DNA of 11,025 nt, from positions 1 to 11,025 of the IMG/VR virus record IMGVR_UViG_2541047885_000020, one strand, 5' to 3'. A program made the position numbers and the translations under genes. A model generated the notes under the pieces. That model searched no databases. It was not told where the DNA came from and saw only the letters and a list, made by a program, of their open reading frames with translations. Shown one piece after another: positions 1 to 11,025 of the stretch. Source of the DNA: a virus (taxonomy: Duplodnaviria > Heunggongvirae > Uroviricota > Caudoviricetes). Each line of letters starts with the position of its first letter. The first letter of the stretch is position 1.

Positions 1-339
1 TCACAATATTAATTTCGTTTCATGCCAGCCTTTAGTCACCCAGCATTGCGAGTCACCATTACACGGGCATGAATTCACAGGAACTCTCTCGCCGCACTTA
101 CCGCAACGTTTTCTGCTGATCGATTTTATACGCCCGTGCACGCGCGCATCATCCTGGCGGATCAGTAACGCTATATACTCACCAAATTCGTAAGGCGCAC
201 GCCCGGGGCGACGTGTGGCACAGTTACGCTCCAGCATTTCAATTTCCTGAGCATCAAGCACAATCTCCAGCTTACGCACACCAGATGCAGCTTGTCTGGC
301 TATCTGAGCGGCTTTGCGCTCTGCTGCTGCCTTGGTCAT
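1..339 (-). CDS. Hypothetical prophage protein with a C-terminal Cys-rich motif (C-x2-C-x9-C-x-C-x5-C), possibly zinc-binding
   Basis: Complete ORF, stop at 1..3 (TGA on - strand). The track starts it at GTG 351, but ATG 339 lies 8 nt after a GGTGG Shine-Dalgarno, so 339 is the likelier start. Last gene of the leftward accessory cluster. No family recognised. Confidence 0.5.
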   Translation of the reverse strand: MTKAAAERKAAQIARQAASGVRKLEIVLDAQEIEMLERNCATRRPGRAPYEFGEYIALLIRQDDARVHGRIKSISRKRCGKCGERVPVNSCPCNGDSQCWVTKGWHETKLIL

Positions 340-424
340 TACCATATCCACCCAATTTCACCAGACATGATTCTCGCAATCACTATCATCACCAAAGTGA
401 TAATCACAACTTTAACTGGCGGCA

Positions 425-1312
425 TTATTCACCATCATGCTGCGGCGGTTCTGGTAGCGGCATCCAGTGTGATGGTATCCACGACGCACCAGGTATTACC
501 CACCCATCATTAGCGTCAGGATGCCCCGGGATGTAAGTCGCCCATTTCATTCGCCAGTCACCTTTCCTGTCAAACTCCCTGGCAACAAGAACGGCTGTTT
601 TGGTATCCGGCATTCGCTCACTACAGCTTATCCAACCATCCGGAGTTACCGGAACTTGTGGAATGGCTGTCTGCTCTCGAACGTCATTAGGCGCTATAGG
701 TTCTGCTGCCAACTGACTGGCATATTTGTTAATGGTAACGATAAGCTCTTGCTCAGCCTCATCCAGACAATCACCGATACCTCGCCTGTCACCGTCAAAA
801 TCATCGAAATCGGCACGAATCCTGGCAACCTTCAGGATTGCGGACAACACCTCACTAGGAATTGCCGGATAGTTGGTTGACGTTTCCGCGATTTCCCGAA
901 AATTATTGGTTGACGAATTCTTGTTTTCCCGAAAGTTTCCGGACTGAAGCATGGCGGCGCGGCAGGCGTTCCAGGCAAATAGTGCGGCTTCTTCCACTGA
1001 AGGCGGAGAGTATCGCTCGATAAACGCCTGTGCATTTGACAGCCTCCACTCATGAGGCAATACCGGCGCTGGCGGGGCGATGCGTCCAAGCAACTTATTT
1101 ACCTCTTTCGCCATCGCGTCATATTTATCTAAATAGCGATTAGCTTCTAAGCAGACTCGGTGCATCTGATCTGAGTTAACTCGTTTAACGGGATCTGCTT
1201 CCAGCGATGCCAGAGCAATTCGTGCCAGTTCCATTTGTTCGCCACGGGTAAGTCCGTTATCAAGCGGATTTTTAATGAATAATTCGATACGTTCTTTGGT
1301 AATAGTGGTCAT
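425..1312 (-). CDS. DUF551-domain prophage protein (C-terminal DUF551-like signature, N-terminal ~200 aa of unknown function)
   Basis: 295-aa ORF; ATG at 1312 preceded by AGGTG with 8-nt spacing. The C-terminus (...WVIPGASWIPSHWMPLPEPP) matches the conserved end of DUF551 proteins common in lambdoid prophages. Adjacent to the stop of the upstream 63-aa gene. Confidence 0.65.
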   Translation of the reverse strand: MTTITKERIELFIKNPLDNGLTRGEQMELARIALASLEADPVKRVNSDQMHRVCLEANRYLDKYDAMAKEVNKLLGRIAPPAPVLPHEWRLSNAQAFIERYSPPSVEEAALFAWNACRAAMLQSGNFRENKNSSTNNFREIAETSTNYPAIPSEVLSAILKVARIRADFDDFDGDRRGIGDCLDEAEQELIVTINKYASQLAAEPIAPNDVREQTAIPQVPVTPDGWISCSERMPDTKTAVLVAREFDRKGDWRMKWATYIPGHPDANDGWVIPGASWIPSHWMPLPEPPQHDGE

Positions 1313-1314
1313 AG

Positions 1315-1506
1315 CTATTTCACCTTAATCTCAACATTTCGCAGCTTTAGCTCTACTGGCAGGTCTGACTTTCCTGTTAATGCTAATGCGAGATTTTCTG
1401 GAGTAATGAGAGCAGTTATTGTTTTCCCCCTCGCCAGACGAATAATCATTCGTATCTCGCGATCGTCACATGCTCCCGGTCGAACAATTGATATTTGTCC
1501 GTCCAT
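1315..1506 (-). CDS. Small hypothetical prophage protein (63 aa)
   Basis: ATG at 1506 preceded by AGGAG with 6-nt spacing; tightly packed between neighbouring genes in the same operon. No recognisable motif. Confidence 0.5.
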   Translation of the reverse strand: MDGQISIVRPGACDDREIRMIIRLARGKTITALITPENLALALTGKSDLPVELKLRNVEIKVK

Positions 1507-1507
1507 C

Positions 1508-2032
1508 TCACTCTCCTTTGATGCGAATGCCAGCGACGCGTAATGCGTGTTCTAGGTCAATCAGGTAAAGCCAACTGCCATTTTCTTTAGGTATCATGAC
1601 ATGTCGCTCATCTGCATTTATCGGGTGTCCATATCGAAGGTCGTAGCGAGTCGGTAATTGAACTTCCCGCGCTTCCAGTTCAGCAATACGCTTCTCTGCG
1701 GCCTCTGCCCTGCATTGTTCCCGTTGGAACATTTTGTGGGTGCGGTCGAGCGCCTCAAGTCTAGCTGCTGATGTTTTCTCTTCTGCTTCAAGCTCAACGC
1801 GCAGCTTCCCTACCGTTAGCGCAATATCCTCGTTCTCCTGGTCGCGGCTTTTGATGTATTGCAGGTTTCTTTCCCGTTCATCCAACAATGCCAGCGCGAT
1901 ATCTGGCGAAAAGTGCTTCATAAAATCGTTAAGCGCATTAATTCGCTGATCGAAAGGCATTACAGGTGCTTCACCAGCAATTTTTGTTTTTTCAGCGATT
2001 TCACGAAGCTTTTGATAGTCAATCTTGCTCAC
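1508..2032 (-). CDS. Ead/Ea22-like coiled-coil prophage protein (putative)
   Basis: 174-aa ORF starting at GTG 2032 with a perfect AGGAGG 6 nt upstream; GTGA start/stop overlap with the upstream gene. Charged, heptad-like central region (RVELEAEEKTSAARLEALDRT...AEAAEKRIAELEAR). Family assignment is from memory of Ea22-like N-termini and needs profile confirmation. Confidence 0.5.
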   Translation of the reverse strand: MSKIDYQKLREIAEKTKIAGEAPVMPFDQRINALNDFMKHFSPDIALALLDERERNLQYIKSRDQENEDIALTVGKLRVELEAEEKTSAARLEALDRTHKMFQREQCRAEAAEKRIAELEAREVQLPTRYDLRYGHPINADERHVMIPKENGSWLYLIDLEHALRVAGIRIKGE

Positions 2033-2466
2033 TGGCTGCCTCCTTTGCGAAGCTGGGCGGCTAACTCATCACATATGTGCGTCAAAGAACAAAGTTTGAT
2101 TGATGGATGTTCGCGCATCATCTCTACCCCCTGCGCCCGCACTTCAGACAGGAAAGCATCGGTGGCTGGCATATTTCCTGTTGCCTTCATTGCCTCCAAA
2201 ATAACCAGAACGCCATCTCGCCCAATCTCCTCGCAGATAACCTCGGTGCTGTCGCCAACAACATCGCAAAATGCCTGAACTGCTTTACGAGCCAGCGCAT
2301 TCTCCGCAGCCAGCGCATTAGCACGCACCAGTTGCACTTCCAGTTGCGTTGCCAAATAGCTGATCAGCTTTGCCACACTGCGCATATCAACGGCACCACA
2401 TTCTGCTTTCAGTTCCGAAGCCATCTCATGCCCGGCGGCAACTAACCATTTGATATTACTTTCCAT
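2029..2466 (-). CDS. Hypothetical prophage protein (145 aa)
   Basis: ATG at 2466 preceded by GAGGG with 5-nt spacing; stop overlaps the start of the next gene. No family recognised. Confidence 0.55.
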   Translation of the reverse strand: MESNIKWLVAAGHEMASELKAECGAVDMRSVAKLISYLATQLEVQLVRANALAAENALARKAVQAFCDVVGDSTEVICEEIGRDGVLVILEAMKATGNMPATDAFLSEVRAQGVEMMREHPSIKLCSLTHICDELAAQLRKGGSQ

Positions 2467-2527
2467 CTTTACCCTCGCTTATCCACATAACTTATTGATT
2501 ACATTGATAACTAAAAAGATCGTCGAT

Positions 2528-2875
2528 TCAGAACTCTTCGATGTTCCAGCCACCACCTGCTTTCTTTGGCTTAACCGTTACCCCGATGATTCGGAACGGA
2601 TACTGATCTGCGGCGACTTTGGTTTTCACTCTGGCGTCATCGGTCCAGAATCCCCCTTTCACTTCGTGCAGCTCCATCTCGCCGGTGGCGAGCATCACAG
2701 CGAAATCGGGCGTATAGAACGTGTTATTAGCTAACCGCAGCTTGATACCCTCGAATCGATACCAGGCGATTTCCCCTGCACGTTTACGCAGCTCAAGGTG
2801 CTGGCAATACGCAGATTCAGTTTTGTTCATCTGGCCTGTTTTGAGTCGACCAAGAGCCTGTATCTGTTTTCTCAT
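2528..2875 (-). CDS. DUF1064-like small protein, putative PD-(D/E)xK-type nuclease
   Basis: 115-aa ORF; ATG at 2875 preceded by GAGGT with 5-nt spacing. Motifs (NKTESAYCQHLEL...AGEI...TPDFAV...ELHEVKG) resemble the D...E-x-K pattern of DUF1064 proteins found after replication genes in lambdoid phages. First gene after the third operator/promoter module. Confidence 0.5.
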   Translation of the reverse strand: MRKQIQALGRLKTGQMNKTESAYCQHLELRKRAGEIAWYRFEGIKLRLANNTFYTPDFAVMLATGEMELHEVKGGFWTDDARVKTKVAADQYPFRIIGVTVKPKKAGGGWNIEEF

Positions 2876-2878
2876 GAT

Positions 2879-2955
2879 TTACCTCTGAGGTAATTAAAAA
2901 CCACATAAGACATGAAATCAATAGAGCTTATAATATTTTGTTACCTAACGGGTAA
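2879..2955 (-). promoter_or_regulatory. Third operator/promoter module: two perfect TTACC-N5-GGTAA palindromes flanking a leftward promoter
   Basis: Palindromes at 2879..2893 (TTACCtctgaGGTAA) and 2941..2955 (TTACCtaacgGGTAA), centres 62 bp apart, the same spacing as in the PL module. On the - strand the 47-nt spacer aligns with the PL spacer (shared CTATTGA; -35 TTGATT = plus 2916..2921; -10-like TTTAAT = plus 2893..2898). Boundaries are approximate. Confidence 0.45.
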
Positions 2956-2967
2956 TTATCGAGGCGT

Positions 2968-2987
2968 AAAAAAATGCGCTATCGCGC
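2968..2987 (-). terminator. Weak intrinsic terminator after the P-like gene
   Basis: On the - strand: GCGC-GATA-GCGC hairpin (4-bp stem) followed by A and seven U residues, immediately after the P-like stop codon (2993..2995). The short stem makes this tentative. Confidence 0.3.
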
Positions 2988-2992
2988 TGGTA

Positions 2993-3793
2993 TTACTTGA
3001 TAAATCCTGCCGCCTTTCCCCGCCTGTATTCCTCCATCAGCCACTGCGCCGGTGTTATTCCCCCAAGGGTGGCGGCGTTAGGCATGCACCCGAAACTTCG
3101 CCCTGGTGGATGGTAAACGTCTCTCCCTGTGTCCGGAGGTGTACTCATGGGCTCTGGCTTTGCCTGTATGCTGATCACCGGATCGGGTATCTGCTGTCCG
3201 GAAGCCACCTTTTTCGCCCAATCATCGAGCAACCTGCGCGCGTGTTTCTCAACCTCAATCTCGCTAAGCTGGCGCTGATACATTGCACGACGGGTATCAC
3301 ATACGACCCAGTACATAACCGGATGCCGCCACGGGAATCTTTCGGGACCACCAGGATATAAACTTTTTTCCTTGCTGTACCGGTGAAACTCCGCCATCAC
3401 ATCGTCAATGGTGACGCCAAGAACCATCTTGCTGTCTTTGCACCACTTGATGAATTGCCCTGGCGACGGCCAGAACGGAGATTCACTGGCGCGGGCGTGG
3501 CGCATACCAGCAGAAACCTGTTCACGGGTACGTATTCCCCCTTCGGCAAACGCAGCAATCCACTGCTGTTTTGCAGCAACTTCCTGCTCTGGCGTCTTCA
3601 GGTTGGTTACCACTGCCGCCGGAAACAGTTGTTTCAGCTGTTTGAAAAGTGCATCAACAAGCCTCTCTGCTGACATGTTCACCACATTGTCATTGTTGAC
3701 GTACTGATGCTCATAACCTGACATGCGAGAAAGGGCTTCTCCGTCACGGTTTTGTATCGCGGTAAAAACGTTGTTCACAAGAAATCCTCCCAC
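2993..3793 (-). CDS. Lambda P-like replication protein (DnaB helicase loader)
   Basis: 266-aa ORF. By recollection of the lambda P sequence it shares FPA..., Q.W..AF.E.GI.T.EQV.AGMR.AR, PF.PSPGQF..WC and LYP....PW motifs in the same order. GTG start at 3793 overlaps the O-like gene end (3775) by 19 bp. Confidence 0.8.
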   Translation of the reverse strand: MGGFLVNNVFTAIQNRDGEALSRMSGYEHQYVNNDNVVNMSAERLVDALFKQLKQLFPAAVVTNLKTPEQEVAAKQQWIAAFAEGGIRTREQVSAGMRHARASESPFWPSPGQFIKWCKDSKMVLGVTIDDVMAEFHRYSKEKSLYPGGPERFPWRHPVMYWVVCDTRRAMYQRQLSEIEVEKHARRLLDDWAKKVASGQQIPDPVISIQAKPEPMSTPPDTGRDVYHPPGRSFGCMPNAATLGGITPAQWLMEEYRRGKAAGFIK

Positions 3794-4590
3794 GCTTCAG
3801 GGCTGTTCCAGTGCGGAACGTTGTTATCAGGTAATGTTGATTGCTTCTGTCTGCTAATCTGCAGCCGCCTTGCCAGCTTCTGCTCCCACTGTGCCTGATG
3901 GTATGCCTTACCCTCAGCCATCCAGTAAATTCTGAACTCTGCAAGTTCCTGTGCCGTTGGCAGACTGTCCAGGTAGATTCCCTGCAATGAGCTTTTCCGA
4001 AGAAAGTCATCTGATGGCTGCCATTGTTCATGCATGACAAATTTGCCTAATTGCCCTGGCCCACCAGGAGGAACAAAGTTATTCATCACGGCGTTGTTTG
4101 CGCCGGGGTCATGAGGCACAGAATCCCCGGTTTTTGTCCTGCTCTCCCTCTCTTGGTTAAATGACTGGTTATATGACTGGTTCTGGATCCCGTTTTTGGG
4201 ATCATTCAACATCCCGTTTTTGGGATCATTCAACATCCCGTTTTTGGGTATATTCCCGTTTTCGGGAACATTACCGTTTTCGGGTTCATTACACCCTTCT
4301 AGGTTGCCTTTAATGTTCCCGTTTTTGGTTATATTAAGAGAGAAAACCCGCACTCTTTTTGTCGCTCCCTTTCTCTCTCCGGTATCTGAAATAAGCCCCA
4401 TTTTCATGAGCGATATAAGCCCGGCCTGCACGGTTTTTTTATTCAGGCAAGTGTCTTTAACGAGGCGTTCTATGCTGGGGTAGCAGAGGTTATATTCATC
4501 GGCTCTGTCAGCCATCGAGAGCAGTATGAGCTTTAATGATGAGCTACCTGGATCTGTCTCCCAGGCCCAATCTGTTGCATGTCTGCTCAT
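3775..4590 (-). CDS. Lambda O-like replication initiator with an iteron-encoded repetitive linker
   Basis: 271-aa ORF; ATG at 4590 preceded by GGAG with 7-nt spacing. N-terminal HTH replisome-organizer-like region (LKLILLSMADRADEYNLCYPSIERLVKDTCLNKKTVQAGLISLMKMGLI); central low-complexity repeats (PENGNVPENGNIPKNGMLNDPKNGMLNDPKNG) encoded by the iteron array; position immediately upstream of the P-like gene. Confidence 0.75.
   Translation of the reverse strand: MSRHATDWAWETDPGSSSLKLILLSMADRADEYNLCYPSIERLVKDTCLNKKTVQAGLISLMKMGLISDTGERKGATKRVRVFSLNITKNGNIKGNLEGCNEPENGNVPENGNIPKNGMLNDPKNGMLNDPKNGIQNQSYNQSFNQERESRTKTGDSVPHDPGANNAVMNNFVPPGGPGQLGKFVMHEQWQPSDDFLRKSSLQGIYLDSLPTAQELAEFRIYWMAEGKAYHQAQWEQKLARRLQISRQKQSTLPDNNVPHWNSPEAWEDFL
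4187..4340. repeat. Iteron array, probable phage origin of replication inside the O-like gene
   Basis: Exact 24-bp tandem repeat ATCCCGTTTTTGGGATCATTCAAC at 4187..4210 and 4211..4234 (internal palindrome ATCCC/GGGAT), then degenerate copies (CCCGTTTTTGGGTAT, CCGTTTTCGGGAACATTAC, CGTTTTCGGGTTCATTAC, CCCGTTTTTGGTTAT) and an A/T-rich stretch to about 4340. Same layout as ori-lambda. Confidence 0.7.
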
Positions 4591-4605
4591 GATTAATCTC
4601 CGCTA

Positions 4606-4806
4606 TCAGCTTGAGTGTTGTGGGGAGGAATTAATCATGATCTGCTTAATCTCTGCCCTGATGCGACGGTTTGATTCCATGGTGCACTCAACACAGTGTC
4701 CGTTGTAAACCCAGCGTTCACTGTCATGTCCATGCTTACATGGTTTTCCGGTGTAGTAGCGTTTAAGTCCGCGCTTTGCGGCATCAATACGTGTAATGAT
4801 TTCCAT
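4606..4806 (-). CDS. Small Cys/His-rich (zinc-ribbon-like) protein at the cII position, putative regulator
   Basis: ATG at 4806 preceded by AGGG with 6-nt spacing; the longer track ORF starts at TTG 4869 with no ribosome-binding site, so the 66-aa form is preferred. Motif PCKHGH-x10-HCVEC could bind a metal. Function not recognised; not similar to lambda CII as I recall it. Confidence 0.5.
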   Translation of the reverse strand: MEIITRIDAAKRGLKRYYTGKPCKHGHDSERWVYNGHCVECTMESNRRIRAEIKQIMINSSPQHSS

Positions 4807-4904
4807 GGTAAGCCCTGTTATTAGTATTGGGATTACGGTCATTTTGTGCTGACACAAAAAAAAGATCAACCAGATTTGGTTATTTATTACCTTTGAGGTA
4901 CGAA

Positions 4905-4935
4905 TAGATATGAAAAGACCGCCGGGTGGCGGTCT
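4905..4935 (-). terminator. tR1-like intrinsic terminator between the cro-like and cII-position genes
   Basis: On the - strand: perfect 8-bp stem AGACCGCC/GGCGGUCU with ACCC loop (plus 4916..4935), followed by UUUCAUAUCUAUU. It lies about 20 nt after the cro-like stop and about 100 nt before the next start. Confidence 0.4.
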
Positions 4936-4956
4936 ACAGAGGGTTGTAGCTGGATA

Positions 4957-5187
4957 TCATGAGTAGAAGAAGTATGCCAGTTCTGCTTTTGAGCGCAGCC
5001 ATTGTCTTGTTTTACAGGCTTTAAAAAGCCCATTCATCAATACTTTACCTGGCATTTTGCGCTTACCTGTTAAGTGAGTCTGGATATAGTGACTCGTCGT
5101 TCCGGCTTCCTGTGCGAAGGCTTCACGCTCATCCGGAGTAAGTGCAAGCCAGTGCTTTTTGAAATCGAAATGTCCGTTATCGCTCAT
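4957..5187 (-). CDS. Cro-like small HTH regulator (putative)
   Basis: 76-aa ORF divergent from the repressor gene across a 154-bp operator region; ATG at 5187 with AGG 8 nt upstream. HTH-like segment (DEREAFAQEAGTTSHYIQTHLTG). The call rests mainly on position and size. Confidence 0.5.
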   Translation of the reverse strand: MSDNGHFDFKKHWLALTPDEREAFAQEAGTTSHYIQTHLTGKRKMPGKVLMNGLFKACKTRQWLRSKAELAYFFYS

Positions 5188-5212
5188 AGCTATTGCCTGA
5201 TATTTATTTCAG

Positions 5213-5286
5213 ATAATAAATATTCACCCATAAGGTAACAAAAATCAAGGATAGTTACCTATGAGGTGCATTTACCTGTTGGGTAA
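5213..5286. promoter_or_regulatory. OR-like divergent operator/promoter region with three operator sites
   Basis: Operator-like sites at 5224..5238 (TCACCcataaGGTAA, 9/10), 5255..5269 (TTACCtatgaGGTGC, 8/10) and 5272..5286 (TTACCtgttgGGTAA, perfect). Leftward PR-like promoter on the - strand: -35 TTGTTA (plus 5236..5241), 17-nt spacer, -10 TATTAT (plus 5213..5218). The rightward repressor promoter was not confidently located. Confidence 0.5.
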
Positions 5287-5341
5287 TATTGCTTTAAATT
5301 GAATCATCTACTGATTCATATATGAGGCGATTTTCCAGAAA

Positions 5342-5926
5342 ATGAAAAGTATCCAGGACGTCCGCAGGCAAAATCTCAACGACTTGATCGACCGTGAATT
5401 CAATGGTGTTCAGACGCGGATGGCAGAAAAACTTGGAACTCAGGCAAATCTGGTAAACCGCTGGGCTCTTGGCAAGAAGGTTATCGGCGACCAGGTTGCG
5501 CGAAAAATTGAAGCTGCCGCCAATAAACCCCGTAACTGGCTTGATATCGATCGCTCGCTTTCTCAGGAAGGTTTTCAGCCTGTCGGCCCAAGCGACATTG
5601 GTCAGCTGGCGGCTCACAACCTGGAACGCTGGATGAGCGAAAGCCGCGACCTTTCAACGCAGGGAAAACTTCACCGCGCATCCGGCGTCGCCCAGGTGAC
5701 AATCAGTCGCCTGTTAAACAATGAGGTCAGCGTTTCCATTTCCACCCTGGAGAATGTTGCATCCGCATTCGGGCGTCACGGCTATGAATTACTGATTCAC
5801 CCGCACGACCCTGCGACCATCAACTATGACCGCTCGCGCTACGCATTGTTACCCGAAACCGAGAAAGCAAAGATCGAAAGTTACATTGAATTTGTCATCA
5901 ACCAGAACGAAAAAAACAAACAATAA
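5342..5926 (+). CDS. Prophage immunity repressor, XRE-type with two HTH-like segments and no LexA/S24-type autocleavage motif
   Basis: 194-aa ORF between the OR-like and OL-like operator clusters, followed by an intrinsic terminator. HTH-like segments near residues 24-45 (VQTRMAEKLGTQANLVNRWALGK) and 110-135 (LHRASGVAQVTISRLLNNEVSVSISTLENVA). No Ala-Gly/Cys-Gly cleavage site and no GDSM/Ser-Lys dyad visible. Confidence 0.6.
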   Translation: MKSIQDVRRQNLNDLIDREFNGVQTRMAEKLGTQANLVNRWALGKKVIGDQVARKIEAAANKPRNWLDIDRSLSQEGFQPVGPSDIGQLAAHNLERWMSESRDLSTQGKLHRASGVAQVTISRLLNNEVSVSISTLENVASAFGRHGYELLIHPHDPATINYDRSRYALLPETEKAKIESYIEFVINQNEKNKQ

Positions 5927-5946
5927 AATCATACTTTTCAGTAAGT

Positions 5947-5970
5947 AAGCCGCCTTCTGGCGGCTTTTTT
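5947..5970 (+). terminator. Rho-independent terminator downstream of the repressor gene
   Basis: AAGCCGCC-TTCT-GGCGGCTT hairpin (8-bp stem) followed by TTTTTT, 21 nt after the repressor stop codon; no U-tract in the opposite orientation. Confidence 0.7.
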
Positions 5971-5983
5971 ATTGCCTATACTA

Positions 5984-6060
5984 TTACCTGATGGGTAATT
6001 TTTTTAACTCATATCTATTGACATCAAACCAAATACGCATAATTATTACCTCAACGGTAA
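5984..6060 (+). promoter_or_regulatory. PL-like early-left promoter flanked by two perfect operator palindromes
   Basis: Operators at 5984..5998 (TTACCtgatgGGTAA) and 6046..6060 (TTACCtcaacGGTAA), centres 62 bp apart. Consensus -35 TTGACA at 6018..6023; -10 candidates CATAAT (6038..6043) or AATTAT (6041..6046) abut or overlap the downstream operator. The first downstream start codon is at 6080 with GAGG at 6067..6070. Confidence 0.6.
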
Positions 6061-6079
6061 CAGACCGAGGTAACAAGTT

Positions 6080-6232
6080 ATGCAGTGGAAAATCATCAAC
6101 GGTTGGTACTGCGTTACTGCATGCGGATTCATGAGCTGGAAGTTCCGCACCTTACAGGAAGGCATTAAGTGGGCTTTCGTCAGCAAAGAAGCTCGCGATG
6201 TGGCCAACGATAACGAGATATGGGAGGGCTGA
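6080..6232 (+). CDS. Small Trp-rich hypothetical protein (50 aa), first ORF of the early-left operon
   Basis: Absent from the ORF track (below its length cutoff); hand-translated as MQWKIINGWYCVTACGFMSWKFRTLQEGIKWAFVSKEARDVANDNEIWEG. ATG 6080 is 9 nt after GAGG; TGA at 6230..6232. Not arginine-rich, so not an N-like antiterminator. Confidence 0.4.
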   Translation: MQWKIINGWYCVTACGFMSWKFRTLQEGIKWAFVSKEARDVANDNEIWEG

Positions 6233-6234
6233 TA

Positions 6235-6534
6235 ATGAACGTTAATCAGCAGAAAAATCTTCAAAAAATCATGCTGGCATTCGACAAGGACTACCGCCTG
6301 TCAGAACAGCTATATGACCGACAAGTTGAACTGATTGAGAGCATCCGACTTCATCAACTGTCCTCAACTTTCGACGTTGTAACAGGCAAAGGCGTTCGTC
6401 AGGAAGTGCTGGAGGCTGCTAAAGACAGCCCTGAGTTCGAAGAACTGATGGATGCCTACCGGCGCGAGGCAATGGCAATTATAGCGCGCTGGGATCTGGC
6501 GGATCAGCTTGATGGACAGAGGGACGCGGCATGA
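6235..6534 (+). CDS. Hypothetical protein (about 100 aa) coupled to the recombination module
   Basis: ATG at 6235 preceded by GGGAGGG; the track ORF starts at 6220 but the ribosome-binding site favours 6235. Its stop overlaps the exonuclease start (ATGA, 6531..6534). No family recognised. Confidence 0.6.
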   Translation: MNVNQQKNLQKIMLAFDKDYRLSEQLYDRQVELIESIRLHQLSSTFDVVTGKGVRQEVLEAAKDSPEFEELMDAYRREAMAIIARWDLADQLDGQRDAA

Positions 6535-7352
6535 AACCGGGAATTTATTTCGACATCAGCAACGAAGACTACCACGCCGGTGACGGCGTGAGTAAGTCGC
6601 AACTGGACATGGTTGCCAAGAATCCGGCGCTTCTTAAATGGGTTCAGGCAGCACCAGAAGACGAAGAGAAAAAGTCTGCACTGGATATGGGAACCGCATT
6701 GCACTGTCTGCTTCTGGAGCCTGGAGAGTTCGACAAACGCTTCATTGTTTCACCGAAATTCGATCGTCGGACGAAACAAGGTAAAGCTGACGAAGAGGCA
6801 TTTCTTCGTGATGTGGCGGATATGGGGATTACGGTACTTGATGCCGAGCAGTGGCGGAAACTGGAGCTGATGCGTGATAGCGCAATGGCTCACCCGGCGG
6901 CACGCTGGATGCTGGAAGCACCTGGTTACTGCGAAGCATCAATGTACTGGAATGATGAAGAGACTGGTGAGTTGTGCCGCATTCGTCCAGACAAATGGCT
7001 GAACGAGCACAACGTGATCGTCGACGTGAAAAAGGTTGCAGATATGGATCGTTTTGCACGCCACATCGAGGAATTCCGCTACCACGTGCAGGACGCAATG
7101 TACCGCGAAGGAGCGATGAGGGTTACTGGTCAGTCGCATGGTTTTTTCTTTCTTGCCGTGAGCGAAAGCATTGATTGTGGTCGGTATCCGGTACGCATGT
7201 TCGCGCTGGATGCGCCGGATGTCGATGCCGGGCACGCTCTGTTCCGCCGGGATCTGAATACCTATCACGAATGCCGCATCAATGATGAATGGGGCGGCGT
7301 GGAAATTATTAAACGCCCTGACTGGGCACGTAAACAGGATATGTACGTATGA
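6531..7352 (+). CDS. RecE-like PD-(D/E)xK exonuclease (exodeoxyribonuclease VIII-like domain), recombination partner of the annealing protein
   Basis: 273-aa ORF with a PD-(D/E)xK-like arrangement (...CRIRPDKW...IVDVKKV...YHVQDAMY...) and an N-terminal GIYFDISNEDYHAGDGVSKSQL motif resembling the RecE C-terminal nuclease/DUF3799 family. ATGA-coupled to the downstream annealing protein gene. Confidence 0.6.
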   Translation: MKPGIYFDISNEDYHAGDGVSKSQLDMVAKNPALLKWVQAAPEDEEKKSALDMGTALHCLLLEPGEFDKRFIVSPKFDRRTKQGKADEEAFLRDVADMGITVLDAEQWRKLELMRDSAMAHPAARWMLEAPGYCEASMYWNDEETGELCRIRPDKWLNEHNVIVDVKKVADMDRFARHIEEFRYHVQDAMYREGAMRVTGQSHGFFFLAVSESIDCGRYPVRMFALDAPDVDAGHALFRRDLNTYHECRINDEWGGVEIIKRPDWARKQDMYV

Positions 7353-8230
7353 GCAATGATATCGCAATCACATCACAACCAGGCGCAACTGTAGGTACTG
7401 CTGCGGCAATCTTCAGCCCGGAGGGCATGAATCAACTGGTGCGTTTCGCGGAGTTGATGTCACAAAGCAAAGCGACTGTACCGAAACATCTTGAAGGCAA
7501 ACCTGCCGATTGTCTGGCGGTGACCATGCAGGCGGCACAGTGGGGAATGAACCCTTTCGCCGTGGCGCAGAAAACGCATGTGGTAAACGGAACGTTAGGC
7601 TACGAAGCACAGTTGGTAAACGCGGTCGTATCCTCTTCCAGCCTGCTGGCGACACGCCTGAATTATCGCTGGAGCGGTGACTGGTCGAATGTTAACGGCA
7701 AAACAGATAAATCACCGAATCTGACGGTAACTGTGTCAGCAGTTCTTAAAGGAGAAGCAGAACCCCGTGAGCTTACCATCAGTATGGCGCAAGCCGGAGT
7801 GCGTAACTCTCCATTGTGGGAACAGGATCCGCGCCAGCAGCTTGCCTATCTTTGCACGAAACGATGGGCTCGCCTGCACGCTCCTGATGTGCTTCTCGGT
7901 GTTTACACCCCTGACGAATTACAGGAAACGGCACCGCGCGTTGAGCGAGACATTACTCCGCAAACAACTACTGCTGCGGGAATGAACAGTCTGATCAACG
8001 CTAAACCAGTGAAAAAGCCTGATGAGCAAACTCGTAAAGCGGATAGCCGTGATCCAGAAGAAATGCTGATGGCCTTTACCAGCGCAGCGATGAATTACAG
8101 CACTGTCTCCGAACTGGATAAGGCTTACAAATACATTGCACAAAAACTTTCAGATGATGACGAACTGCTGGCAAAAGCCACCGACGTTTACAGCGTTCGT
8201 CGGGAAGAATTAAACGAAACATCTATGTAA
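7349..8230 (+). CDS. RecT/Redbeta (Bet)-family single-strand annealing protein
   Basis: 293-aa ORF. From memory of lambda Bet it shares the core A-D-x-x-A-x-x-x-x-A-x-Q-x-G-[LM]-N-P-[WF] (ADCLAVTMQAAQWGMNPF here vs SDAQFIALLIVANQYGLNPW in Bet) and a downstream ERDITP motif. Sits directly after the exonuclease, as in recE-recT modules. Confidence 0.7.
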   Translation: MSNDIAITSQPGATVGTAAAIFSPEGMNQLVRFAELMSQSKATVPKHLEGKPADCLAVTMQAAQWGMNPFAVAQKTHVVNGTLGYEAQLVNAVVSSSSLLATRLNYRWSGDWSNVNGKTDKSPNLTVTVSAVLKGEAEPRELTISMAQAGVRNSPLWEQDPRQQLAYLCTKRWARLHAPDVLLGVYTPDELQETAPRVERDITPQTTTAAGMNSLINAKPVKKPDEQTRKADSRDPEEMLMAFTSAAMNYSTVSELDKAYKYIAQKLSDDDELLAKATDVYSVRREELNETSM

Positions 8231-8279
8231 CCACCACCGCGGCGCCACACGCGCCGCACTGCAACCAAGAGAGGTATTT

Positions 8280-8528
8280 ATGAAAGGTGCATTAGATAAG
8301 AAGAAACTCCTGGCGGTGGTGCCACTGTCATGGAGCACTATCGACCGTATGGAGCGCGCAGGGGAATTTCCTAAACGCTGGTATATCACTGACAAACGCT
8401 GCGCATGGAACCGTGACGAAGTTGAGCGTTGGCTTGATGAACGTCAGGCAGCAAGCCCGGCAGAGTTCCAGGGTAAAAAGCCTCCTGTTCAGCAACGTGT
8501 ATATCGTCCTGTGAGAAACGCTGCATGA
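8280..8528 (+). CDS. AlpA-family excisionase / DNA-binding regulator (Xis-like)
   Basis: 82-aa ORF; ATG at 8280 preceded by AGAGAGG with 6-nt spacing. Motif (LLAVVPLSWSTIDRMERAGEFPKRWYITDKRCAWNRDEVERWL) matches the AlpA/phage excisionase winged-helix family that typically accompanies P4-type integrases. Confidence 0.75.
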   Translation: MKGALDKKKLLAVVPLSWSTIDRMERAGEFPKRWYITDKRCAWNRDEVERWLDERQAASPAEFQGKKPPVQQRVYRPVRNAA

Positions 8529-8637
8529 GTGTGCTGCTAAGGCACTGGAGCAAATGGTCAGGATGGTACTTATTCCTGGCCTCTGTTTCAGCATGGCTTT
8601 ATCTGCTGGCATTAATTTTCAGAGAGGGTTGGATTAA

Positions 8638-8937
8638 GTGAGAAAGTTAAGCCGACTTGAAAAATATCACATGAATAAGGTTTCAATGCGCAGTCCGTCA
8701 AAGATTGTCGCCGTTACTCCTGCGGCGATAGAGATCGAAAAACGCGCGATTGAAAGAGAGAAAAAAGGGCAATTCCGCATTGCCGCTCACCTTTGGCTTC
8801 AGTGTATGGATGTTGCTTCTGGTGATGTTGAACGTGCAAGGATCGCGGTTCGCAGGGACCAATGTATCACAAAAGGTAACGGCCTTCGCCGTGGCGACTA
8901 TAGCGGCATAGGATGTTGTGGGGTGGTTTATGACTAA
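8638..8937 (+). CDS. PerC/ANR-family-like small transcriptional regulator (putative)
   Basis: ORF with a GTG start at 8638 (AGAGAGGG 9 nt upstream); ATG starts at 8671 or 8686 are possible alternatives. Motif EKKGQFRIAAHLWLQCMDVASGDVERARIAVRRDQC resembles the PerC-family pattern (G-x-[FYW]-R-x-A-A-x-x-W ... ER ... RR..C). The stop overlaps the methyltransferase start. Confidence 0.5.
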   Translation: MRKLSRLEKYHMNKVSMRSPSKIVAVTPAAIEIEKRAIEREKKGQFRIAAHLWLQCMDVASGDVERARIAVRRDQCITKGNGLRRGDYSGIGCCGVVYD

Positions 8938-9580
8938 GAAATACACACTAATCTATGCAGATCCACCCTGGGTATACCGGGACAAAGCCGCAGATGGTAA
9001 TCGCGGTGCCGGTTTTAAATATCCGGTTATGAGTGTGCTGGATATCTGCCGCCTTCCTGTGTGGGATTTGGCCGATGAAAACTGTTTGTTGGCCATGTGG
9101 TGGGTGCCAACACAACCACTCGAAGCACTAAAAGTTGTTGAAGCCTGGGGATTCCGTCTGATGACCATGAAGGGCTTCACGTGGATAAAATGTGGTAGTC
9201 GACAACCAGATAAACTGGTTATGGGTATGGGACACATGACTCGCGCCAATAGTGAAGATTGCCTGTTTGCGGTAAAGGGAAAACTACCTACGCGCATTAA
9301 TGCAGGGATCGTTCAGTCATTTACCGCACCGCGGCTTGAGCATTCAAGAAAGCCAGATGTCGTTCGTGAAAAACTTGTGCAATTGTTAGGCGATGTTTCT
9401 CGCATTGAACTGTTCGCCCGCCAGTCGTCTCATGGTTTCGATGTTTGGGGTAATCAGTGCGAAGACCCGGCAGTGCAACTACACCCTGGATACGCGTTGG
9501 ATATTGCCAGATTAACAAATGCATTCAGCAATGCTCCGCTGTCACCAACAGACAACCAGGGGCGGGAGCGTGCTGCATGA
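8930..9580 (+). CDS. MT-A70-family DNA N6-adenine methyltransferase (orphan, phage-encoded)
   Basis: Catalytic DPPW motif near the N-terminus (MTKKYTLIYADPPWVY...), typical of MT-A70 methyltransferases. ATG 8930 preferred over the track start at GTG 8918; GGGTGG lies immediately upstream. No cognate restriction endonuclease gene nearby. Confidence 0.8.
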   Translation: MTKKYTLIYADPPWVYRDKAADGNRGAGFKYPVMSVLDICRLPVWDLADENCLLAMWWVPTQPLEALKVVEAWGFRLMTMKGFTWIKCGSRQPDKLVMGMGHMTRANSEDCLFAVKGKLPTRINAGIVQSFTAPRLEHSRKPDVVREKLVQLLGDVSRIELFARQSSHGFDVWGNQCEDPAVQLHPGYALDIARLTNAFSNAPLSPTDNQGRERAA

Positions 9581-9771
9581 ACAGGGCATCACCAGCAGAT
9601 TTAAGAAAATGCCTTGAAACTGCAAACATGCTTGCACACAGCGGGATCAGGTTTGTTCCAATTCCCGCTGTCACTGATGCTGAATTTGCAACACTGTCAG
9701 CAATATTCGAAAACAAAATTGAATCACTGGCAGCAGAAGCAGAGATGGAAGAAAATCAGCAGAACTATTAA
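9577..9771 (+). CDS. Small hypothetical protein (64 aa), last gene of the early-left operon
   Basis: ATG 9577 overlaps the methyltransferase stop (ATGA). The track ORF from 9457 is extended upstream in a frame overlapping the methyltransferase, so the short form is preferred. Ends 3 nt before the convergent integrase stop. No family recognised. Confidence 0.5.
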   Translation: MNRASPADLRKCLETANMLAHSGIRFVPIPAVTDAEFATLSAIFENKIESLAAEAEMEENQQNY

Positions 9772-9774
9772 ACG

Positions 9775-11025
9775 TTATTCCCCCGCCATCCACTTCTCAA
9801 ACTTCGACGGGGAGAACGGAATCAGATCCGTATGCTCCCCGTCAATCCAGGAATCAATCATATCGGCCCACTGCTGCAACATGTAGGCGCGCTGTCTGGC
9901 GTATTCCGCTTTGTTATATACGGCGCGCACACCTTTCTGCTCATGTGCCAGAGCCTTTTCAATCCAGTCTGAAGGATAACCAGCCTCATGCAACAACGTA
10001 CTGGCTGTACGGCGCATATCATGTACGGTGAAGTCCTGAATATGCTCACCATCTTCATTTATTATTTTCACCGTTCTGTCGATCAGAGAGTTCAGCGCGG
10101 CATTAGATAATGGCTTCCGGAAGTTGTAACGACCAGGAACCAGATATTCACTTCCACCAGCGCACATCTGCAACCCGACCAATATATCCTGTGCCTGTTT
10201 AGGCAGGTAAATAACATGCGCCCGGCTTCCCTTCATGCGGTCTGAAGGAATTGTCCATGTCCATTTTTTAAAATCTATTTCGTCCCACGTTGCATTGGTG
10301 AATTCGCCTTTACGAACCATAGTGATAAGCACCAGCTTTAAAGCCATTTTCATAGTGCCCATAGCACCAATGGCATCCAGCGTGCGGAAGAACAGGCCAA
10401 TTTCTTCTGGTGTCAGTGTTCGCTCTCGTGGTTTAAATATGGCGATAGACGAAGGTTTAATGTCAGCCGCAGGATTAAACAAACCATGACCACGGTCATT
10501 GGCGTGACGGTATACGCTGCTGATGATCTCCCTGGCCTGCACTGCTGTTGCCCGACCACCGCGTTCGACAATCCGGTCACACAAATCACGAACCATCGAT
10601 GTGGTAATTTCAGTCATCATTTTGTTGCCAAGAACCGGAAGTATGTCACGGTCGATCACCGCCTGCTTCATTGCGCGGGTACTGTCAGCCAGGATGACAT
10701 GTTTCATATAACTGTCGGTATGTACCGCAAACGTCTCGGCACCACGAATCTTTTTGATACCGTCACGTTTAGCCGCAGCCGGTGACTGGCCTGCTTTAAG
10801 CAGCTTCTTTGCAGCAATCAGTTCTTCTCGCGCTTCTGCCAGGCTGATACCGTCACGCCCATACTGCCCGATTACCAGTGTTTCGCGGCGACCGTTGATA
10901 CGGTAGTCATAGCGAAACGAGACCGTGCCTGACGTAAGCACAGCTACATACAGCCCGTCACGATCGGAGACCTTGTACAGTTTGTCCTGCGGCTTGAGGT
11001 TTTTTAATTTTGTATCGGTAAGCAC
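9775..11025 (-). CDS. int: Tyrosine site-specific integrase, P4/IntS-like; N-terminus at the window edge (possibly GTG start or 5'-truncated by the window)
   Basis: 416-aa ORF with the LTDTKLKNLKPQDKLYKVSDRDGLYVAVL N-terminal arm-binding motif typical of P4-type integrases and a C-terminal catalytic region (R...HDMRRT...LAHE...VRAVYNKAEY) with the conserved H-x-x-R and terminal Tyr. The first codon is GTG at 11023..11025, exactly at the window end. Confidence 0.9.
   Translation of the reverse strand: MLTDTKLKNLKPQDKLYKVSDRDGLYVAVLTSGTVSFRYDYRINGRRETLVIGQYGRDGISLAEAREELIAAKKLLKAGQSPAAAKRDGIKKIRGAETFAVHTDSYMKHVILADSTRAMKQAVIDRDILPVLGNKMMTEITTSMVRDLCDRIVERGGRATAVQAREIISSVYRHANDRGHGLFNPAADIKPSSIAIFKPRERTLTPEEIGLFFRTLDAIGAMGTMKMALKLVLITMVRKGEFTNATWDEIDFKKWTWTIPSDRMKGSRAHVIYLPKQAQDILVGLQMCAGGSEYLVPGRYNFRKPLSNAALNSLIDRTVKIINEDGEHIQDFTVHDMRRTASTLLHEAGYPSDWIEKALAHEQKGVRAVYNKAEYARQRAYMLQQWADMIDSWIDGEHTDLIPFSPSKFEKWMAGE

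Follow-up and report, generated by a model that had tools for sequence, protein, structure and literature searches.

A Rep-type immunity repressor, probably relieved by a small LexA-controlled antirepressor, in the early region of a phiV10-like Escherichia coli prophage

The window analysed here, a stretch of 11,025 nucleotides of viral DNA (positions 1 to 11,025 of the IMG/VR record IMGVR_UViG_2541047885_000020), is the early region of a phiV10-like prophage, which it covers from the start codon of the integrase gene, at the right end, to the nin-like genes. The ORF under study, referred to as rep, lies next to a divergent cro-like gene on one side and is followed on the other side by an intrinsic terminator and a PL-like promoter (Table 1). 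The latter serves the early-left operon, which comprises small ORFs, an exonuclease and RecT. The ATG start of rep is correctly assigned, since the N-terminus MKSI is invariant in the homologues. The first-pass annotation had located this ORF at the position of cI, between OR-like and OL-like operators and with its own terminator, and this arrangement was confirmed, with operators at 5224-5286 and 5984-6060 and a hairpin with a T-run at 5947-5976. The remaining ORFs of the window that were scanned with Pfam and PHROG encode only replication, recombination and regulatory proteins. Consensus scanning gave no convincing candidate for a PRM-like promoter of rep, and no Rfam family was found in the window.

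Table 1. Features of the rep region and of the other operator sites in the window. Positions are those of the window; a dot marks features without strand.
Feature	Position	Strand	Remarks
Operator TTACCTCTGAGGTAA, perfect	2879..2893	.	directly upstream of the DUF1064 gene (start 2875, - strand); partner of the 2941 site
Operator TTACCTAACGGGTAA, perfect	2941..2955	.	62 bp from the 2879 site; motif scan
Operator-like site TTACCTTTGAGGTAC, 1 mismatch	4887..4901	.	just beyond the cro terminator; motif scan
cro terminator	4916-4935	-	
Cro-like gene, 76 aa	4957..5187	-	divergent from rep; phrog_35 (transcriptional repressor); homologue of phiV10p41 / epsilon15 gp39
PR-like promoter of the cro-like gene, TTGTTA-17-TATTAT, 9/12	5213..5241	-	consensus match only
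OR-region operator TCACCCATAAGGTAA, 1 mismatch	5224..5238	.	overlaps the promoter-like site toward the cro-like gene
OR-region operator TTACCTATGAGGTGC, 2 mismatches	5255..5269	.	motif scan
OR-region operator TTACCTGTTGGGTAA, perfect	5272..5286	.	motif scan
rep, predicted lysogeny/immunity repressor	5342..5926	+	ATG start, stop codon included, 194 aa
Rep residues 1-70, N-terminal HTH DNA-binding domain (DBD)	5342..5551	+	54% identical to SPC32H Rep
Rep residues 86-155, second HTH_3-like segment, corresponding to the SPC32H middle dimerisation domain (MDD)	5597..5806	+	31% identical to SPC32H Rep
Rep residues 156-194, C-terminal, corresponding to the SPC32H tetramerisation/Ant-binding domain (CAD)	5807..5923	+	51% identical to SPC32H Rep
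rep intrinsic terminator, hairpin AAGCCGCC-TTCT-GGCGGCTT + T-run	5947..5976	+	GC-rich 8-bp stem; hairpin 5947-5966
OL-region operator TTACCTGATGGGTAA, perfect	5984..5998	.	upstream partner in a 62-bp pair; motif scan
PL-like promoter, TTGACA-17-AATTAT, 10/12	6018..6046	+	between both OL operators; consensus scan
OL-region operator TTACCTCAACGGTAA, perfect	6046..6060	.	downstream partner; overlaps the end of the -10 hexamer; motif scan

With regard to the operators, the motif TTACC-N5-GGTAA was found at 14 sites in the window when up to 2 mismatches were allowed; 2.98 were expected, and each of 200 shuffles gave fewer than 14. Five sites are perfect (5272, 5984, 6046, 2879, and 2941). The spacing is exactly 62 bp both at 2879/2941 and at 5984/6046, and pairs with this spacing are present twice per genome in phiV10, ZX5, the prophage of E. 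coli APEC E18055, SPC32H, and epsilon15, giving 12 instances in six sequences. The spacing of the OR operators (17/30 or 48 bp) is also conserved in the phages compared. As 62 bp amounts to approximately six helical turns, this distance would be consistent with one tetramer that spans a promoter by contacting two operators on the same side of the helix. Judging from their positions, the sites at 2879 and 2941 probably constitute a third region under the control of Rep, situated downstream of the replication genes. The site at 4887 has counterparts at the equivalent position of phiV10, ZX5, and the APEC E18055 prophage. Complete phages carry further copies of the motif ahead of terS, the portal operon, int, and the ant/tailspike region. 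The TTACC-N5-GGTAA operators at early promoters are those expected of an SPC32H-type system, the motif and its spacings being common to SPC32H and epsilon15.

The phiV10-type phages with an identical Rep cover 72-87% of the window at about 97-98% DNA identity. The best whole-window coverage by megablast was 92% at 97.4% identity among complete E. coli genomes and 87% at 97.8% among phages. As no single complete genome or phage record matches throughout, the early region appears to be a mosaic. Between positions 4800 and 6300, the window is 99.9% identical to E. coli APEC E18055, in which the prophage adjoins guaA; phage ZX5 integrates at the 3' end of guaA (Li et al., PMC9782041).

At the protein level, tblastn against phage records showed that the window Rep is 100% identical to phiV10 gp40 and to ORF21 of vB_EcoP_ZX5. 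The identical protein is also present in phages phiv142-3, PAS61, and EC.W1-9 and in O157 typing phages 9 and 10; what sets the window apart from these phages is its mosaic surroundings, not the repressor itself. In ZX5, overexpression of ORF21 resulted in zero free phage (Li et al. 2022, PMC9782041) and lowered endolysin transcripts by 99.99% and holin transcripts by 99.97% (PMC9782041), which bears out the proposal that this ORF encodes the immunity repressor. In the PDB, the window Rep matched 5D50_A, named 'Repressor', with phmmer (E 4e-42, residues 1-190 aligned to 2-197), and 5D4Z was also matched. A tblastn search against phage records identified 5D50 as the Rep of the Salmonella phage SPC32H, which is 42% identical to the window Rep by BLASTP (E 2e-53). 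5D50 is the Rep-Ant complex of SPC32H, and 5D4Z comprises residues 92-198 of its Rep (Kim & Ryu 2013, Kim et al. 2016). Altogether, 86 Rep homologues were found, all of them in Enterobacterales; the full-length ones comprise approximately 190-235 aa, and a few shorter matches are partial.

Rep belongs to the XRE/HTH_3 superfamily, as the Pfam family HTH_3 scores above its gathering threshold (38.5 bits, cut-off 23). This family matches two stretches, the best being residues 106-147, and a YdaS/Cro-type HTH matches residues 21-61. The AlphaFold (AF2) model, obtained from an alignment of 25 homologous sequences (pLDDT 77.5), is all-helical, with no strands called, and exhibits an N-terminal domain (residues 4-59), a second domain (83-151), and a long C-terminal helix (172-193), residues 74-82 being of low confidence. 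HTH-like helix pairs are observed at 24-31/35-43 and 107-114/118-125, in agreement with the two HTH-like segments noticed by the first-pass annotation. When this model was compared with the PDB by Foldseek, 5D50 and 5D4Z came first, followed only by XRE-type HTH proteins (NHTF, SinR, HigA, DdrO, and Stl). The Pfam matches, which are exclusively HTH, the two helical domains and C-terminal helix of the model, and the Foldseek results all correspond to the three-part architecture of SPC32H Rep, which has no protease domain. In PMC9986798, SPC32H Rep is described as consisting of an N-terminal DBD, an MDD, and a C-terminal CAD; the CAD tetramerises and binds Ant, and only the N-terminal domain binds DNA. 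By analogy, the second HTH-like segment of the window Rep would be a dimerisation domain and not a DNA binder. The stronger HTH_3 match (residues 106-147) was considered as the DNA-binding domain and rejected, as it aligns to the SPC32H MDD and the NLVNRW helix is located in the N-terminal domain. This motif, putatively that of the recognition helix, is conserved in the DBD, with N36, L37, R40, and W41 being invariant, which fits a half-site, TTACC, that is retained even between phages with Reps of only 42% identity.

The first-pass annotation had seen no antirepressor gene in the window, and our searches agree with this: Pfam and PHROG revealed none among the other ORFs, five Ant/BRO-type proteins gave nothing better than E 0.26 by tblastn against the window, and no LexA box (CTGT-N8-ACAG) is present in it. 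In SPC32H, ant is a gene of 86 aa that is divergent from the tailspike gene. In phiV10, the same place is occupied by phiV10p24, which encodes an 85-aa Ant that is 88% identical to SPC32H Ant. ZX5 and the APEC E18055 prophage also carry a small ant, annotated as 'hypothetical protein', which is the label of Ant in most phage records as well. A LexA box that resembles the consensus (CTGT-N8-ACAG; CTGTATAAATATACAG, TACTGTATAAATATACAGT) lies just upstream of ant, as does a perfect Rep operator that abuts a TTGCAA hexamer, and the same layout is observed in SPC32H. Ant and the LexA box were seen in every complete phage or prophage with an identical Rep that we examined (phiV10, ZX5, and APEC E18055), the ant gene lying outside the part represented by the window. 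More broadly, of 36 phage records with a full-length Rep homologue, 35 also encode Ant, the exception being the 138-kb record BP9. Among the phages compared, Ant identity is 85-88% in those of Escherichia, Salmonella, and Enterobacter and 58-63% in those of Klebsiella. The expectation that an antirepressor is encoded elsewhere in the prophage thus holds for all the relatives examined; on the strength of these relatives, the window's own prophage probably carries ant as well.

The mechanism of this family has been described for SPC32H. According to the review PMC7380047, which cites, among others, Kim and Ryu 2013 on SPC32H, the antirepressor of several Salmonella prophages is made after LexA self-cleavage and inhibits the repressor by protein-protein interaction, cleavage of the repressor being no major outcome. 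According to PMC9638917, the form of SPC32H Rep that binds DNA is the tetramer, the dimer binding only weakly; the pairs of DNA-binding domains stem from different dimers, and the Rep tetramer is broken when an Ant tetramer engages two Rep dimers. A bioRxiv preprint (10.1101/2025.11.27.690993) is a further secondary source on the mechanism of SPC32H Rep and Ant.

Based on the homology with SPC32H Rep, the N-terminal HTH domain of the window Rep would read the 15-bp palindromes TTACC-N5-GGTAA, the second HTH-like segment would dimerise the protein, and the C-terminal 40 or so residues would form both the tetramer and the docking site of the antirepressor. The positions of the sites suggest that Rep would repress the divergent rep/cro promoters, the promoter of the early-left operon, and a third one ahead of the DUF1064 gene, as its operators overlap these promoters or flank them. 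Upon DNA damage, self-cleavage of LexA would derepress the small ant gene, which is expected approximately 28 kb away in the prophage, beside the tailspike gene. The Ant tetramer would then bind the C-terminal domains of Rep and split its tetramer into dimers, and Rep would leave the DNA. SPC32H Rep reportedly remains uncleaved during the SOS response, and a point mutation of the LexA box in SPC32N is said to result in constitutive ant expression, both according to the abstract of Kim and Ryu from 2013. For the window Rep, the absence of cleavage, the binding of Ant, and the tetramer are expected by analogy with an SPC32H Rep that is 42% identical overall and 31% identical in the middle domain. 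Induction would still be SOS-dependent, through the control of ant by LexA and without RecA-stimulated cleavage of Rep. That induction proceeds through an antirepressor rather than through autocleavage, as was initially suggested, is supported by this homology and by the presence of Ant and its LexA box in phages with an identical Rep. The initial description of Rep as a dimeric HTH binder was half right: the palindromic operators and the HTH agree with it, but SPC32H Rep binds as a tetramer (PMC9638917), and the DNA-binding form of the window Rep is probably a tetramer too.

Among the known systems, that of SPC32H is similar to the window in several respects. The two Reps are of equal length and share the DBD-MDD-CAD layout without an S24 domain, rep is located in both between a cro-like gene and the early-left operon, and the operators exhibit the same TTACC-N5-GGTAA motif and the same 17/30-bp and 62-bp spacings. 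In contrast, the 5 bp between the operator half-sites are A/T-rich in SPC32H and contain more G/C in the window, the Reps diverge most in the middle domain (31% identity), and SPC32H lacks the extra Ant-module proteins carried by the relatives of the window prophage. The Ant module is also found at the C-terminus of the APEC prophage's BRO-N protein and of a 300-aa protein with an 'antirepressor N-terminal domain', whose gene adjoins an Arc-family gene. The epsilon15 repressor, gp38 (AY150271.2), is 42% identical to the window Rep. Its GenBank record cites 5D50 for the repressor and already marks seven 'repressor' binding sites, ATTACC-N5-GGTAAT, at OL, upstream of terS, at the portal operon, at ant/tailspike, and in the nin-like region. 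Whereas the OL of epsilon15 comprises three sites (spacings of 76 and 62 bp), that of the window comprises two (62 bp).

More distant systems share part of this logic. The Ant of SPC32H is reportedly structurally distinct from the antirepressors of Sipho- and Myoviridae (abstract of Kim and Ryu 2013). The antirepressors of phage 186 (Tum), Gifsy-1/-3, and Fels-2 follow the same principle, in which a non-cleavable repressor is inactivated by the protein of a LexA-repressed gene (PMC7380047), and the Ant proteins of Gifsy-1/-3 and Fels-2 are called homologous to Tum in this review (PMC7380047). Lambda cI, P22 C2, and LexA share with Rep the position in the immunity region, the palindromic operators at divergent promoters, and the link of induction to the SOS response. 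However, they exhibit an HTH and a Peptidase_S24 domain, whereas the window Rep has no S24 domain, no cleavage site, and instead a helical dimerisation domain and a small tetramerisation domain. Rco of the Bacillus plasmid pLS20 (TetDloop repressors) also has an N-terminal HTH DBD and a C-terminal p53-like tetramerisation domain and is relieved by a partner protein (PMC9986798). An analogy between Rco and SPC32H Rep has been proposed (PMC9986798), but Rco, unlike the latter, has no middle dimerisation domain.

The position of rep between OL- and OR-like regions resembles that of lambda cI, and Rep could in principle be cleaved in a RecA-dependent manner, as lambda cI is, by a cryptic or very divergent autoprotease. 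Nothing positive was otherwise observed for this possibility. Peptidase_S24 (PF00717) gave no match in Rep in Pfam even at E<=10, none of the 86 homologues has a PF00717 annotation, and no S24 peptidase structure is among the Foldseek matches of the model in the PDB. The translation lacks cysteine altogether and contains neither Ala-Gly nor Cys-Gly as a dipeptide. Neither the S24 domain with its Ser-Lys dyad nor the Ala-Gly/Cys-Gly linker site of LexA/lambda cI-type repressors was found. The S24 fold is largely beta, unlike the all-helical model of Rep, and the end-to-end alignment with SPC32H Rep leaves no room for another domain. The profile search, the model, and Foldseek therefore concur with the first-pass annotation, which had recognised no S24/LexA-type autocleavage module, and cleavage of Rep is extremely improbable. 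It is also very improbable that another gene of the prophage is the true immunity repressor and that the rep product plays only an accessory part in regulation, for instance as an HTH protein resembling an antitoxin. One phage record does carry the name 'plasmid maintenance system antidote protein VapI' for the identical protein, and PHROG and Foldseek revealed some weak resemblance to HigA-type antitoxins. However, the identical protein was seen to repress lytic genes and to eliminate free phage (PMC9782041), Rep is orthologous to the product of the genetically and structurally defined SPC32H rep, its operators sit at early promoters, and no toxin gene adjoins rep. We are highly confident that the ORF encodes the Rep-type immunity repressor of a Uetakevirus (phiV10/epsilon15-like) E. 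coli prophage, a repressor that would not be cleaved and would be switched off by a small LexA-controlled Ant.

The antirepressor that was tested with the identical-Rep phage ZX5 is a larger BRO-N-domain 'anti-repressor', ORF4, and not the small Ant (PMC9782041). Its overexpression decreased the prophage titre from 10^9 to 10^6 and the repressor transcripts by 75% (PMC9782041), and proteins of this type could be the main inactivators of Rep instead of the small Ant, an alternative that we consider rather unlikely. The C-terminal 75 or so residues of ORF4 align with the complete small Ant at 42% identity, so ORF4 plausibly docks on the same Rep domain as Ant, and it probably acted as an antirepressor through this Ant module. 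Furthermore, the -10 hexamer of the promoter-like site of the BRO-N gene in ZX5 abuts a perfect Rep operator, and the leader that follows this site shows matches to isrK and C4 antisense RNA. Nevertheless, one antirepressor does not preclude the other. Lacking a LexA box, the BRO-N gene cannot alone tie induction to the SOS response, the BRO-N protein of phiV10 (phiV10p23) is truncated inside its Ant module whereas the small ant of this phage is intact, and SPC32H has no BRO-N gene and only the small Ant. The small LexA-controlled Ant thus remains the preferred inactivator of Rep.

In close relatives of the window prophage, the Ant fold of approximately 75 residues is encountered three times: alone behind a LexA box, fused to BRO-N behind a Rep operator and an isrK/C4 leader, and fused to an 'antirepressor N-terminal' domain beside an Arc-family gene. 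A tentative reading, which we regard as possible, is that the Rep of phiV10-like prophages is the common target of several antirepressors sharing one Ant module. If this is true, one non-cleavable repressor would integrate the SOS response, its own operator occupancy (by positive feedback), and an immI-like circuit, with the Ant-module fusions lying outside the window. No description of such a modular arrangement with multiple inputs was found in the literature, and the authors of the ZX5 study are silent on the Ant module of ORF4.

The Rep system itself is already known: the identical protein occurs in phages that have been sequenced and tested, and the family has crystal structures and a described induction mechanism, so the locus has little value as a discovery. 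Its value is mainly one of annotation. The rep locus is present in 562 of the 5426 complete E. coli genomes, or about one in ten, and the ant locus in 529 of the 5426, these being separate totals; in E. coli, the product of rep is labelled only 'helix-turn-helix domain-containing protein'. Recognition of the rep/ant pair would mark such prophages as SOS-inducible through LexA rather than through cleavage of the repressor. Given the similarity of Ant across phages, it might also cross-induce related prophages.

With regard to the operators of Rep, the 194-aa lysogeny repressor, a third perfect pair of the TTACC-N5-GGTAA palindrome is present in the window, after the replication gene P and just upstream of the DUF1064 gene. 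The two sites of this pair are spaced by exactly 62 bp (2879 to 2941), as are those of the OL pair (5984 and 6046). This 62-bp spacing occurs twice per genome in phiV10, in phage ZX5, in the prophage of the avian pathogenic Escherichia coli (APEC) strain E18055, in SPC32H and in epsilon15; in the epsilon15 record, a single site of this second pair is annotated. A single operator-like site is also found directly after the cro-gene terminator and ahead of the next small gene, and it is conserved in phiV10, ZX5 and the APEC prophage, at a constant 337 bp from the OR site.

Features of the window and of the compared loci (L006, ZX5; L003, APEC E18055 prophage; L001, locus of phiV10p23; L002 and L007, further loci with an ant/tailspike region)
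Feature	Location	Strand	Remark
116-aa protein gene	window 1-351	-	
Perfect Rep operator pair (third)	window 2879-2893 and 2941-2955		upstream of DUF1064 gene, start 2875 (-)
DnaT-like replication initiator gene	window 3775-4590	-	
Tandem repeats	window 4154-4292		inside initiator gene
Small gene	window 4606-4869		
Operator-like site TTACCTTTGAGGTAC	window 4887-4901		one mismatch; between cro-gene terminator and small gene
cro-gene terminator	window 4916-4935	-	
Exonuclease (PDDEXK/DUF3799) and RecT genes	window 6531-7352 and 7349-8230		separate, overlapping
isrK and C4 antisense RNA matches	L006 1821-1906 and 1931-2006	-	Rfam
Perfect Rep operator, BRO-N-Ant leader	L006 2043-2057		
Promoter-like site, BRO-N-Ant leader	L006 2057-2085		
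Perfect Rep operator, ant/tailspike intergenic region	L003 38698-38712; L002 20013-20027; L007 19895-19911		
Endosialidase tailspike	L003 38817-41936		
Ant-module proteins	L006 1078-1773 (-); L003 36525-37217 (-), 34351-35253 (+); L001 19646-20230 (-)		

Perfect Rep operators are not confined to the window. In the ant/tailspike intergenic region of three loci, such a site is immediately adjacent to a TTGCAA/TTGCAT hexamer, on the upstream side of the LexA box that precedes the gene of the small SPC32H-type antirepressor (Ant). Given this arrangement, the ant promoter or the divergent tailspike promoter may also be a target of Rep. The tailspike itself differs between phages: that of phiV10 is O157-specific, whereas the rep-carrying prophage of the APEC strain, which is of serotype O2:K1:H7, exhibits in its place an endosialidase specific for the K1 capsule. 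This prophage also harbours, beside the antirepressor region, a YafO-family toxin gene, annotated as part of a type II toxin-antitoxin system and adjoining a small hypothetical ORF.

A C-terminal module resembling the small Ant (42% identity over about 75 residues) is found on larger proteins, namely BRO-N proteins and a 300-aa "antirepressor N-terminal domain" protein adjoining an Arc-family gene; in phiV10p23 the module is truncated. The BRO-N fusion of ZX5 was assayed as "the" antirepressor of that phage, the small ant still being annotated as hypothetical (Li et al. 2022, PMC9782041). In the leader of this BRO-N-Ant gene, matches to isrK (77.9 bits) and C4 antisense RNA (77.7 bits) are present, an organization that resembles the immI control of ant in P1/P7. 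Ahead of them is a promoter-like site, the -10 hexamer of which directly adjoins a perfect Rep operator, and the C4 RNA is overlapped by an annotated "ash family protein" ORF.

The DnaT-like initiator gene contains iteron-like tandem repeats, with units of 24 bp (2.6 copies, 100% match), 18 bp (3.1 copies) and 12 bp (2.4 copies), and a small CCCGTTTTTGGG-type palindrome is present in each set. The same repeats encode a recurring "NGMLNDPK" stretch in the protein. They probably constitute the phage replication origin, whose placement within the coding sequence of the initiator would then match the situation in lambda O.

The exonuclease and RecT are likewise encoded by separate overlapping genes in the APEC prophage and ZX5, whereas a single fused 1761-nt "RecE-RecT" gene is annotated in the phiV10 RefSeq record. 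At the left end, the 116-aa protein exhibits a Cys-rich C-terminus (CGKCGERVPVNSCPCNGDSQC) and matches phrog_536, "transcriptional regulator" (E 1e-52). Its gene is the last before terS, the place that phiV10p55, described as resembling epsilon15 gp49, occupies in phiV10; judged by this position, the protein appears to be the counterpart of phiV10p55/epsilon15 gp49, and it may be a late-gene regulator. Both ends of the window are gene boundaries, and the right end coincides with base 1 of the integrase gene. The window is a mosaic: its coverage reaches at most 92% in complete E. coli genomes and 87% in phage records, while the rep region itself is present in 562 of 5426 complete E. coli genomes.
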